Origin: a virus
Lineage: Duplodnaviria > Caudoviricetes
Strand: one strand, 5' to 3'
IMG/VR virus record: IMGVR_UViG_3300021255_002694
Length of the DNA stretch: 64,000 bases
Position numbers and translations under genes: made by a program. Below, in pieces: positions 15-17,749 of this stretch. Under the pieces are notes generated by a model that worked only from the letters and a program-made list of their open reading frames with translations, was not told the origin of the DNA and searched no databases. The number at the start of each line of letters is the position of its first letter. Positions within the stretch are counted from its first letter, which is position 1.

Positions 15-629
15 ATGAAACTATACTTTGAAAGATTCCCAGAAGATGATTGGGCATTTCAGGATGCAGAAAGACGATGGCTGTCTCCGGATGATCCGGT
101 TGATGCAGATGTTTACACTGGTGTTGTAGAAGCAACAGTTACAAATCCTGTTACTGGTGAATCCATACAATATACTGTTGAAAAAGAGTATGAGGACACT
201 GATTGTTTTGGAGAAGCATCATGCAGACGTCAATTTGAAAAAGATGCAGAAGAACTTGTATGGGATGCATTGGCAGAAGATTCCGCATTTTCTGATTTAG
301 ATGATGATGAATGGTATGGTCTGCAAATAGAAATTGATAATATAGAATTTGAGCCAAATTTTAACGAAGCTGTCCAGCCGATGAAAAAGAACCTGATAAC
401 AGAAGCAGATGAAAATATAGTTGAACAGGTTGAACAGCTAATTGATTCAATTATAGAAAAGAATCTTGAAGCCGCAAATCTTCCGCAGCTTGTGGAGAGA
501 TCAGTTCAAGGATATGACAGTAGTTGGGCGCAGAAGAATGTTGATCTTGATGCTCAATATAAAGTTGTAAAACAACAATTTGTTTCAGAAGTAGCCAAAT
601 CGCTATTTGCAAATTTTGATAAACGATGA
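15..629 (+). CDS. acidic hypothetical protein, putative capsid-targeted internal protein
   Basis: ATG at 15 after GAGGGGTG SD; begins MKLYFE; second internal leader-like MKKNLITEA. Confidence 0.6.
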   Translation: MKLYFERFPEDDWAFQDAERRWLSPDDPVDADVYTGVVEATVTNPVTGESIQYTVEKEYEDTDCFGEASCRRQFEKDAEELVWDALAEDSAFSDLDDDEWYGLQIEIDNIEFEPNFNEAVQPMKKNLITEADENIVEQVEQLIDSIIEKNLEAANLPQLVERSVQGYDSSWAQKNVDLDAQYKVVKQQFVSEVAKSLFANFDKR

Positions 630-649
630 TGAAAAGGAGATTTTGAATT

Positions 650-1357
650 ATGAACAAGTACATTGCAAAGATTTTTAAGAGTGCCGGAGTTAGCGCAAAG
701 GTTTCAAAGGATTCTGAGAATCCAAGATTTAAGGTAGTTGATAACAAGCTAACACTAGAGGGCATCATTAAAGACGGTAAGTATTCAATGAAGATTAGAG
801 ATTATAAGGGTAAGATTATTGACAATATGTCTGTGGCAGTTTCAAATGGTAATGATATTGTAAACAGAGTAAATGAATCACTTAATACTCTAAAAACTCT
901 TTCTAAAGTATATGAGAACAATCAGTTGAGAGAGGAAGAAGAAGAATTTGATGATGTTGTTGTCAGCGAGGATGAACCTGATACTTTAACTGACGGTCTT
1001 GATGATCTGTATGATGCAATCCTTGATGTTGCAGAAAAGGCTGAAAATCTTTCTGATCTTGCAGATGAAGATGATGCTGAACAGTTAAGCACACTTATTG
1101 GATTTTCAAGTTCTCTATATGATTGTGCGATTGATGTTGATGAATACAGAGAAGATTTGATTGAAGAAGAAGCAGATGAAAACGATGAAGATGTCACAGA
1201 GAGTTTCAAGAAAGTTAAGATTTCAAAAGGCAATGCTAGAAAGGCTCTTGATAATCTAACTCTTGCTGAGTCTATTCTTCGTAAGTGTGACGGTTATTCT
1301 GATATTGTAAAAGCTATTAAGGATATAAAGTCTGAGATGATTGTTAGAGGACGTTGA
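650..1357 (+). CDS. hypothetical protein with acidic central region, putative virion protein
   Basis: AAGGAG SD; LREEEEE and VTES sites. Confidence 0.55.
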   Translation: MNKYIAKIFKSAGVSAKVSKDSENPRFKVVDNKLTLEGIIKDGKYSMKIRDYKGKIIDNMSVAVSNGNDIVNRVNESLNTLKTLSKVYENNQLREEEEEFDDVVVSEDEPDTLTDGLDDLYDAILDVAEKAENLSDLADEDDAEQLSTLIGFSSSLYDCAIDVDEYREDLIEEEADENDEDVTESFKKVKISKGNARKALDNLTLAESILRKCDGYSDIVKAIKDIKSEMIVRGR

Positions 1358-1363
1358 TGATAA

Positions 1364-1765
1364 ATGATTATTCTTAACAAAGAAATAATCAGTCCTGTAA
1401 AAATCGACAAAGATTTAGTAATGACATATAAGCATGAAGGAGATAGATACCTAGTTGCAGTAAATCATAATTTAACTAAGCAACTGGTATCTTATCTCGT
1501 TTACTATGATTTACAGCAAGTAAATAATGCTTTCTTTAAGATTCTTAAATATCTAATAAAGGGTTATTATGAAAATCTTGATGATTTTGAAGCTGATTAT
1601 GTTGATCTTATAAAAAAGTGTGATATATTCATTAAGAGTTGTAATGATAATATTCCAGAGGGCGTTGCTGAAATATCCTGTGATAAAATTGAGATGTTTA
1701 AGCTAGCAATACAGAAACTAAAATATGTTGTTGAAAATATTTGTTACTCGGAGGAAGATGCATGA
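1364..1765 (+). CDS. hypothetical protein
   Basis: ORF packed in operon. Confidence 0.55.
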   Translation: MIILNKEIISPVKIDKDLVMTYKHEGDRYLVAVNHNLTKQLVSYLVYYDLQQVNNAFFKILKYLIKGYYENLDDFEADYVDLIKKCDIFIKSCNDNIPEGVAEISCDKIEMFKLAIQKLKYVVENICYSEEDA

Positions 1766-1980
1766 AGTTCGTTCAATTTTCTAGTATGCCTGTAAAGGGA
1801 AGAATTAAATTTGTACAAGATAAACTAATAAAGTTTGGGTATTTGAAAGAGAATGAGAGTACACCATATAAACGCGATAAGAAATTTATTAAGGCATTGA
1901 TGAAATTTCAAGAAAGTCATGGAATGACACCGAATGCAGATATAACAGAGGATGTTTTTGATGCATTAAATTATAATTGA
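1762..1980 (+). CDS. small peptidoglycan-binding-domain (PG_binding_1-like) protein
   Basis: GGAGG SD, ATGA overlap; VQDKLIKFGYL...ALMKFQESHGMTPNADI pattern. Confidence 0.65.
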   Translation: MKFVQFSSMPVKGRIKFVQDKLIKFGYLKENESTPYKRDKKFIKALMKFQESHGMTPNADITEDVFDALNYN

Positions 1981-16982: not shown

Positions 16983-16991
16983 TTGAAAAAA

Positions 16992-17019
16992 TCAAGGGGG
17001 TTTTCATAAACCCCCTTGA
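16992..17019. terminator. hairpin whose 3' arm overlaps the -35 of the next promoter
   Basis: TCAAGGGGGTTT/AAACCCCCTTGA. Confidence 0.65.
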
Positions 17020-17044
17020 CAAATCAAGTAAAATATGATATACT
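17016..17044 (+). promoter_or_regulatory. sigma70/sigmaA promoter, extended -10
   Basis: TTGACA-N17-TATACT with TG. Confidence 0.8.
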
Positions 17045-17062
17045 ATAAAAGAGGTGATCGCA

Positions 17063-17749
17063 GTGAAACTAGAGATTCTTGAAAAGAATGAAATTCAAAG
17101 AGCATTATATGGAGATTACAAGCATAGAATTAAAACATTTGCAATTTTTACTGCTGAGAATCCAATGGGTAAGCATTTAGAGCCTAGTGAAAATAACAAA
17201 AGAACAAATGAACTTAAAAAAATCTTTAAGCAAATGAATCTACAGTATATTCCAATTAACGGAAGATTTGATGTTGAAGATAGTAAAATCAAGAGAAATT
17301 ATGGAGATAGTAAATACGGAAAGTCTCTGAGTAGGGATGAACATAGTTTTGTTGTAATCAATATCAGTCTCAGTGAGGCGAAAGGTATTTGCGAAAAATT
17401 TGATCAACTTTCATTCTTTTTCGGAGAGCAGACTTGGACAAATGACGGCAGTTCTGATGACTTGAATACAAGTAGCACTCTTTATTATTATGAAAAGAAA
17501 TATAAAAATTCTGACTATGTTATGGTTGACAGTTCAAGAAAAGTTAAGGATGCTTCGACATTTGATAATTTCTTTTCAAGACATAAAAACTTTAAGTATA
17601 GCATTTGTATGAAGATTTTTGGAAACTACGAATCATTAAATGATGTATTGGATGTTGATTGTTTGCTAGAATCTCTCGAAGATGATAGAACATCTTTCTT
17701 TAGGTCAACTAGAAGATATCATGCATATAATGGAACATTTCTAAAATAA
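17063..17749 (+). CDS. DUF3293/SAM-lyase-like protein (copy 4, paralogue of 12885)
   Basis: TFAIFTAENPMG...ENNKRT...EHSF...FDQLSFFFG...FFSRH; MKLEILE leader. Confidence 0.65.
   Translation: MKLEILEKNEIQRALYGDYKHRIKTFAIFTAENPMGKHLEPSENNKRTNELKKIFKQMNLQYIPINGRFDVEDSKIKRNYGDSKYGKSLSRDEHSFVVINISLSEAKGICEKFDQLSFFFGEQTWTNDGSSDDLNTSSTLYYYEKKYKNSDYVMVDSSRKVKDASTFDNFFSRHKNFKYSICMKIFGNYESLNDVLDVDCLLESLEDDRTSFFRSTRRYHAYNGTFLK

Follow-up and report, generated by a model that had tools for sequence, protein, structure and literature searches.

The window analysed here, a stretch of 64,000 nucleotides (nt) from a tailed phage (Caudoviricetes; IMG/VR record IMGVR_UViG_3300021255_002694), opens with a block of 26 genes (positions 15-17749) in which proteins of unrelated families begin with the same short leader. 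The leader comprises 5-8 residues, follows the consensus M-K-L-x-I-x-E, then S, D or N, and is a real, lineage-wide N-terminal tag. By analogy with phage T4 it is probably a capsid-targeting tag that is processed by the prohead protease and carried by an enlarged, partly enzymatic set of cargo proteins. Judging from their sequences, the tagged proteins would be cleaved, encapsidated and injected, and would act against host defences.

An initial annotation of this DNA had listed 15 block proteins as sharing the leader, and all 15 N-termini were found, every one with a GAGGTGAT-like ribosome-binding site 4-10 nt ahead of its start. Six of the 15 genes start with TTG or GTG (2361, 8059, 9860, 12885, 14280 and 17063; genes and their products are designated by first position), and homologues in relatives have ATG at the same start position. 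The leader is also enriched over other genes of the window: a loose form of the motif begins 16 of the 26 block proteins as against 10 of the 39 other window proteins (Fisher p = 0.005), and relative to the 13% of internal sequence windows that fit it, the block excess has a binomial probability of 1e-8. In order to avoid circularity, a position-specific scoring matrix (PSSM) was trained solely on the N-termini of two relatives, L009 and L011, whose genes had been called independently by the source database; when applied to the N-termini of the window, it placed block proteins at all of the top 13 ranks and at 17 of the top 18 (Mann-Whitney p = 7e-7). The leader codons differ synonymously, which indicates that the constraint acts on the peptide. 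After trimming of the leaders, BLAST searches within the block link only the two SprT-like proteins and the four S-adenosylmethionine (SAM)-lyase/DUF3293 proteins to each other, so that the leader is found in no fewer than 11 unrelated families. In 12 of the 15, Ile or Leu stands two positions ahead of the Glu, and two further proteins (8973, 15429) have longer, basic leaders of 11 and 19 residues with the same terminal motif.

Two other types of N-terminal signal were considered and rejected: a signal peptide or lipoprotein signal would need a hydrophobic core, for which there is no room with a Glu as early as positions 5-8, and for a radical-SAM recognition tag, a Pfam search of the block in the window found no radical-SAM gene. 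Relatives encode one radical-SAM gene (PF04055 and Fer4_12) near the block, which in our reading is NrdG-like.

According to structure models, the leader is a linear motif outside the folded domain. In the AlphaFold2 (AF2) model of the SprT-like protein 7256 (predicted local distance difference test (pLDDT) score 87), residues 1-8 are coil and the first helix begins at residue 9; in that of the SAM-lyase-like protein 14280, residues 1-5 have a pLDDT below 50 and the first strand spans residues 10-14. Conservation is nevertheless strict in the first family: all 29 SprT-like homologues, some with an identity as low as 39%, have Glu5, and at least 90% of them have Leu3; the leader pattern is also kept in 49 SAM-lyase-like homologues. 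Residues 12-164 of the protein with the best-scoring leader (11254) align to an internal domain of a 468-residue protein of the uncultured relative G001; the homology begins at residue 12, and the leader thus lies outside the homologous part. Homologues of 2361 in G001, L009 and L011 have the same start with ATG and the leader, while homology begins at residue 56.

The leader's portability across unrelated proteins and related phages is supported by the relatives, in which the tag is indeed kept on different cargo. In L009 and L011, 13 of 37 and 14 of 33 proteins, respectively, begin with the same type of leader. G001 shares few block genes and has its own tagged proteins upstream of TerL, together with a second cluster of about ten tagged genes at 130-144 kb (reverse strand coordinates), far from its head module; this second cluster adjoins two large proteins whose N-termini resemble that of window protein 26083. 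About seven small tagged open reading frames (ORFs) with a variant leader are present in the cultured Streptococcus phage vB_SagM-GXN1, three of them directly behind the capsid gene, two within the tail module and two elsewhere in the genome; they were found with a regular expression, since the PSSM of the window lineage scores the variant leader poorly. Among relatives of the Thornevirus group, which are similar in composition, only about 3 of 45 N-termini are of this kind. The block of L009 and L010 contains at 8739-9227 a gene for an ADP-ribosyltransferase (ART-PolyVal, PF18760) that is not in the window.

The candidate enzyme for removal of the leader is encoded nearby. As the initial annotation had stated, the block lies directly upstream of the head genes with their gp21-type protease: on its 3' side follow, in this order, TerL with an intein, a T4-type portal, a 151-residue protein, the gp21-type protease-scaffold and a capsid protein of gp23 type. 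The order of the head genes corresponds to 20-67/68-21-22-23 of T4. In an alignment with T4 gp21 (5JBL), His (in E-L-D-H-P) and Ser (in G-V-S-S-R-G) of the protease occupy the catalytic positions; H75, S131 and E174, the last being the Glu at the junction of protease and scaffold, are invariant across 50 protease homologues. The N-terminus of the protease itself resembles that of T4 gp21, and the end of the leader matches the L/I-x-E cutting motif of T4 gp21.

The scaffold, which is dense in the same motif, provides the strongest internal evidence. Expected site numbers were derived from composition-preserving shuffles, the quantity scored being site density, not cutting. The scaffold of the window contains 14 hydrophobic-x-E-S/A (h-x-E-S/A) sites versus 2.6 expected (p < 2e-4), and those of G001, HSE3 and GXN1 contain 15 versus 2.1, 14 versus 3.2 and 16 versus 2.7, respectively; a median excess of 3.9-fold was obtained for 138 representatives of the protease-scaffold family, and in 27.5% of their sites Ser follows the Glu. 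T4 served as a positive control: in gp22, 16 sites compare with an expectation of 5.8, and gp24, Alt, gp67 and gp68 have leaders with the same motif at their ends. The block proteins together have 38 sites versus 14.3 expected (2.65-fold), as compared to 1.56-fold in tail and replication proteins.

A second element of this grammar is a basic linker of the form site, 8-9 basic residues, site. It occurs at the protease/scaffold junction (nt 23220-23267), where it is kept in G001, and again inside 8973, 9860, 12885 and 15429, the last of which has several such linkers between h-x-E-S/A sites (e.g. nt 16662-16709). Traces of fusion accompany the linkers. Two modules of 15429 correspond to parts of two separate tagged proteins of L011, relatives retain the first module of 8973 alone, preceded by a similar but longer leader, and the internal leader copy of the N-terminally untagged protein 3388 is apparently the relic of a fusion with a downstream ORF. 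The shared grammar of leaders and linkers and the fusion traces make both look like one processing code. Protein 28055 of the head module is probably another processed head protein (Table 1).

The nature of the cargo has been examined by Pfam searches at a report threshold of E <= 0.01, complemented by structure comparison. Two of the enzyme assignments made in the initial annotation are borne out. Four cargo proteins are SAM-lyase-like or DUF3293 proteins, for which the predicted SAM-lyase identity holds: 12885 and 17063 exceed the DUF3293 cut-off of 25, 13492 and 14280 match PF23780, and a Foldseek search of the PDB with the AF2 model of 14280 has 8bb1_E (the T3 SAM lyase, E = 7.6e-4), 6zm9 and 6znb as top matches, with Svi3-3 among the best. 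Two others are SprT-like, with PF10263 scores of 46.8 and 34.6 bits (cut-off 25.6) and the H-E-x-x-H of the family represented by H87, E88 and H91, invariant in the alignment. Other labels fared less well. The Dps-like label of 2361 finds a faint echo in PDB searches, where 11 of 13 matches are Dps or ferritin-like (E = 0.08-0.24, residues 74-110, in one case 68-123), a stretch of some 35 residues, and 2361 has no Pfam match; the ParB-like and DarA-like labels are not upheld, with no Pfam match at the threshold in any block protein, nor was homology to DarA, DarB, Hdf or Ddr found by Pfam in the block proteins, 15429 included. As to the proposed acidic mimics, what is observed is a low isoelectric point (pI) of 4.05-4.14 in four block proteins. 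PADLOC and PHROGs yielded nothing useful for the cargo proteins of no known family; an ESM Atlas search with 6396 gave no usable match, and 15429 has no PDB sequence match, its modules being without known family. Overall, the mix of four SAM-lyase-like, two SprT-like, acidic and multi-module proteins would fit a role in counter-defence.

The protease-processed, T4-like capsid-targeting tag could operate in the following manner: The tagged proteins would be made in the infected cell, and the amphipathic leader may bind the protease-scaffold core while the shell assembles. Once active, the prohead protease would cut after the Glu, requiring an aliphatic residue two positions before and preferring Ser after it. 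The grammar of sites suggests that the same enzyme may also cut the scaffold at about 14 positions and excise the double-site basic linkers from multi-module cargo. The scaffold fragments would then leave the head, whereas the freed cargo would stay with the DNA and enter the next host, as do T4 IPI-III and Alt. In a broader and more tentative form, which is somewhat less likely than not, the 5-8-residue leader and the excisable basic linkers would constitute a general head-load-and-release code of a widespread ruminant-gut lineage of phages with genomes of ~200 kb, such that a gene or fused module turns into virion cargo on acquiring it. By this code 15-25 enzymes and inhibitors (SAM lyases, zinc proteases, ART, acidic proteins) would be delivered, several times the number for T4, in a set that changes between strains. 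Of the initial proposal that a portable tag loads 15-20 proteins into the head, the part concerning the tag stands: it is real and portable and ends in a gp21-type motif that is also dense in the scaffold; loading and delivery would be consequences that the analogy suggests.

Several observations weigh against a capsid-targeting function. The leaders of the window are shorter than those of T4 (5-8 versus 10-19 residues), and only the M-K start and the aliphatic-x-Glu end are alike. Only 3 of the 15 leaders have Ser next to the Glu, whereas this residue is dominant there in the scaffold, and in a few members of the SAM-lyase family Asp replaces the Glu. The loose motif is common, as seen from the 13% of internal windows and the 1.56-fold excess in tail and replication proteins. 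The second tagged cluster of G001 implies that nearness to the head module is not a rule. A complex prediction that paired protease residues 20-175 (from an alignment of 50 rows) with the N-terminal 40 residues of 14280 argued for neither side. Finally, consensus promoters of host type precede 11918, 12885-16982 and 17063, just as they precede replication-side genes; at least these genes are therefore probably made early, which would render injection less necessary. The strong promoters at 11879-11907, 17016-17044, ~54716 and ~55770 are near-identical (TTGACA, 17 nt, then TGTGTTATACTAT). A fairly good sigma-A-type promoter also lies ahead of TerL, and promoter type consequently cannot separate early from late genes. 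The T4-type late-promoter motif TATAAATA was found only six times in the window, without pattern, all clear promoters being of the sigma-A type, and the metatranscriptome contigs over the block are short and patchy and bear on neither timing nor transcription. In T4, the ip genes are transcribed both early and late.

These promoters are also an argument for an unlikely alternative, in which the leader is a capsid-unrelated N-terminal signal on early accessory or host-takeover proteins that act in the producing cell, be it a stability or degradation signal, a docking peptide for another phage factor, a site for the SprT-like proteases or a start that favours translation. SAM lyases such as the T3 enzyme act as early-expressed proteins, the block encodes two SprT-like proteases, and the tagged cluster of G001 is distant from the head genes. 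A start favouring translation would agree with a second codon that is mostly AAA and an A-rich leader, but the synonymous codons, the invariant Glu and the conserved aliphatic residue two before it speak for a signal in the peptide, not in the mRNA. More generally, a signal unrelated to the capsid leaves unexplained the internal linker motifs and the 4- to 6-fold site excess in scaffolds throughout the family; moreover, gp21 is known to be specific for a Glu before the cut and an aliphatic residue at P3, and in GXN1 the capsid gene is directly followed by three of the seven tagged ORFs, with two more in the tail module.

Improbable is a second alternative, in which the tagged proteins do enter proheads, but as assembly components (core, scaffold accessory or DNA-condensing proteins) that are degraded or inert and not as delivered effectors. 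The grammar of linkers and leaders common to scaffold and 28055 would be compatible with such a role, as would the many block proteins that have no recognisable enzymatic domain and the precedent of T4 gp67, gp68 and gp22, which are cleaved core proteins with similar N-termini. However, six tagged proteins are enzyme-like, with SAM-lyase or SprT folds, the corresponding block of a relative encodes an ART-PolyVal protein, and the fast turnover of genes with the tag kept is expected of accessory genes, not of assembly genes. That the shared N-termini have no function and simply result from an AT-rich composition, the choice of start codons or common ancestry is very unlikely: 13% of internal windows and 26% of the N-termini outside the block do fit the loose motif, six proteins are paralogous and six non-ATG starts had been picked by eye, but the PSSM based on the independent gene calls of other genomes still reaches p = 7e-7, at least 11 unrelated families have the leader, homologues have ATG at the same position, and the Thornevirus group of similar composition shows only ~3/45.

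Table 1. Features of the block, the head module and the expression signals in the window (coordinates in nt; aa, amino acids)
Feature	Coordinates	Strand	Details
Tagged protein	15..629	+	204 aa, pI 4.05; 6-residue leader ending F-E; no family match
Tagged protein	2361..3377	+	338 aa, TTG start, 7-residue leader, 14 Cys
N-terminally untagged protein	3388..4020	+	Internal fossil leader at nt 3673-3720: F-Y-E-S, five residues, M-K-L-M-I-K-E
Tagged protein	4705..4953	+	82 aa; 8-residue leader ending V-R-E, then S
Tagged SprT-like zinc metalloprotease	5488..6153	+	221 aa; PF10263 E = 1.8e-8; paralogue of 7256
Tagged protein	6396..7250	+	284 aa, pI 4.14; 4 internal h-x-E-S/A sites versus 0.8 expected
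Tagged SprT-like zinc metalloprotease with zinc ribbons	7256..8053	+	265 aa; PF10263 E = 2.9e-12; 36 homologues
Tagged protein	8059..8877	+	272 aa, TTG start, 5-residue leader
Protein with 11-residue basic leader ending M-K-E, then S	8973..9776	+	Double-site basic linker at nt 9414-9464 (residues 148-164)
Tagged protein	9860..10657	+	265 aa, TTG start; double-site basic linker at nt 10313-10360 (residues 152-167)
Tagged protein	10672..11235	+	187 aa, 7-residue leader; basic stretch ending V-N-E, then S, near residue 84
Tagged protein, best-scoring leader	11254..11751	+	165 aa
Tagged DUF3293/SAM-lyase-like protein	12885..13484	+	GTG start; PF11697 E = 5.7e-12
Tagged SAM-lyase-like protein	13492..14265	+	PF23780, 34.8 bits (cut-off 28)
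Tagged SAM-lyase-like protein	14280..14954	+	GTG start; PF23780 E = 1.3e-10, 41.8 bits (cut-off 28)
Tagged protein	14971..15384	+	137 aa, 31% Asp+Glu, pI 4.05
Multi-module protein with 19-residue basic leader ending V-T-E, then A	15429..16982	+	517 aa
Tagged DUF3293 protein	17063..17749	+	GTG start; own promoter and terminator
T4-type portal	20416..22179	+	PF07230 E = 2.2e-51
Small protein placed like T4 gp67/gp68 (prohead core)	22206..22661	+	151 aa; placed by gene order relative to T4; no family match
gp21-type (S77) prohead serine protease fused to coiled-coil scaffold	22707..24533	+	PF03420 E = 3e-11; phrog_207
Major capsid protein, T4 gp23 type	24578..25933	+	10-residue N-terminal piece ending M-V-E; homology to relatives from about residue 23
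Head-module protein, no known family	28055..29314	+	Basic N-terminal leader; 6 h-x-E-S/A sites versus 1.8 expected
Sigma-A-type promoter, consensus	11879..11907	+	TTGACA, 17 nt, TG-extended TATACT
Similar sigma-A-type promoters	12791-12818; 17016-17044; ahead of replication-side genes 54799 and 55856		
GC-rich hairpin with flanking T and A runs	16991..17020	- (as reported)	Taken as terminator between sub-operons of the block
Further terminator-like hairpins	11760-11789; ~12764-12790; ~17828-17850		First on both strands; last two by eye only

All credible genes of the window lie on the + strand, and its GC content is ~33%. Within the block, the ORF at 11918-12745 probably begins further in, at the ATG at 11954; this start is preceded by a ribosome-binding site and agrees with the N-termini of the homologues in L009 and L011. 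The gene product has no tag and resembles a coiled coil. An antisense ORF of 256 codons at 11948-12718 is probably spurious. Two similar long intergenic hairpins of the GGGTACAAAA ... TTTTGTACCC type are located at 9790-9850 in the block and at 54466-54510, the latter adjoining an AT-rich region ahead of the replication-side genes; a role as terminators is possible, as is that of a common regulatory or origin element. Further downstream, at 34980-35994, an open frame of 90 codons without a good start overlaps the end of the gene preceding the tape-measure gene, which may reflect a tail-chaperone frameshift. Scans of the window for tRNAs and Rfam families found none.

With a capsid protein only ~25% identical to those of T4-group phages, the phage belongs to a distant lineage. 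By the same protein, the nearest cultured phages are Listeria LIS04, Bacillus HSE3, SP-15 and Streptococcus GXN1 (38-42% identity), and a search of cultured phages for close DNA relatives found none; closer relatives are uncultured contigs of 198-222 kb. An IMG/VR pattern scan for relatives of the SprT-like and SAM-lyase-like genes found none. Sheep and cattle gut metagenomes from many studies contain the phage, which has a genome of roughly 200 kb and resides in ruminant guts; in our reading, its ribosome-binding sites and promoters look Firmicute-style.

The intein of TerL (17968-20400) matches PF14890 at residues 595-666, and the length of TerL, 810 residues in the window, is 663 in L004 and 1083 in L005, which suggests a variable intein content. 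The capsid gene of the window is intact and uninterrupted; in L005 an inserted ORF, whose N-terminus looks like that of a GIY-YIG homing endonuclease, splits it into two pieces (12784-15064), in the 99%-identical contig L003 it has a gap of ~400 bp (4573-6219), and in SP-15 an annotated endonuclease stands between two capsid pieces. These interruptions may represent a mobile intron.

If the leader is a capsid-targeting tag, a pre-made protein set much larger and more enzymatic than in the T4 model would be in the cell before phage gene expression, with consequences for how restriction, BREX-type and signalling defences are defeated at the entry stage. The leader would also provide a simple sequence rule for spotting injected effectors in uncultured phages, and a tag this short might be used to package foreign proteins into phages of Gram-positive bacteria. 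It marks dozens of proteins of unassigned function as candidate counter-defence factors, and the cultured tagged relative vB_SagM-GXN1 makes the question directly testable.

Among known systems, that of the T-even phages is closest. T4 gp21 cuts after L/I-x-E, and the internal proteins of T4 have core-targeting leaders of 10-19 residues that are later removed (PMC9026906); in T-even phages, the internal proteins number at least ten and are diverse, with nothing but a leader in common (PMC12373910, PMC3012670). IPI, IPII and IPIII and the polymorphic ip loci resemble the block in that unrelated proteins have an M-K...aliphatic-x-Glu leader, next to a gp21-type protease, a site-dense scaffold and fast turnover; the coding sequence of the T4 leader is found twice in the T4 genome. 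In the window, 15-17 tagged genes compare with three in T4, enzyme folds occur among the predicted cargo, as do multi-module proteins whose basic linkers could be excised, and protease and scaffold form one polypeptide. T4 Alt is an enzyme processed by gp21 (PMC9026906). As enzymatic cargo with a leader of 6 residues that ends in I-T-E, closest in length to the leaders described here, it resembles the block proteins; in contrast to them, it is a single protein and also trimmed C-terminally, and no Alt homologue is present in the window. With its prospect of a set much larger and more enzymatic than that of T4, the initial annotation overstated the novelty, given Alt and the size of the T-even sets.

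In the phiKZ-like and SPN3US-like giant phages, many head-internal proteins are cut after Glu by a diverged gp21-type protease, and propeptides have multiple sites (PMC9026906, PMC7411985). There, unlike here, the motif is S/A-x-E with a small P3 residue, the propeptides are long and the cargo consists mostly of conserved structural and ejection proteins, not of a swappable short-tagged set. The Dar proteins of P1 require Hdf and DarA for loading and do not use a leader with a protease site. In the polyvalent proteins of phages and conjugative elements, several conflict domains, a zincin protease usually among them, are combined in one large polypeptide (Iyer et al. 2017, PMC5512222). The idea of counter-defence enzymes (zincin-type metalloproteases, ADP-ribosyltransferases) that travel with the DNA is common to the P1 Dar and polyvalent proteins and to the system proposed here; unlike in the polyvalent proteins, most domains here form small proteins by themselves, tagged one by one, and the zincin-type SprT domains are a case in point. 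The principle is already known from T-even phages, so that the gain is one of breadth and detail, not a new category; what is added is a distant gut-phage lineage, very short leaders, a putative linker code and a cultured relative.

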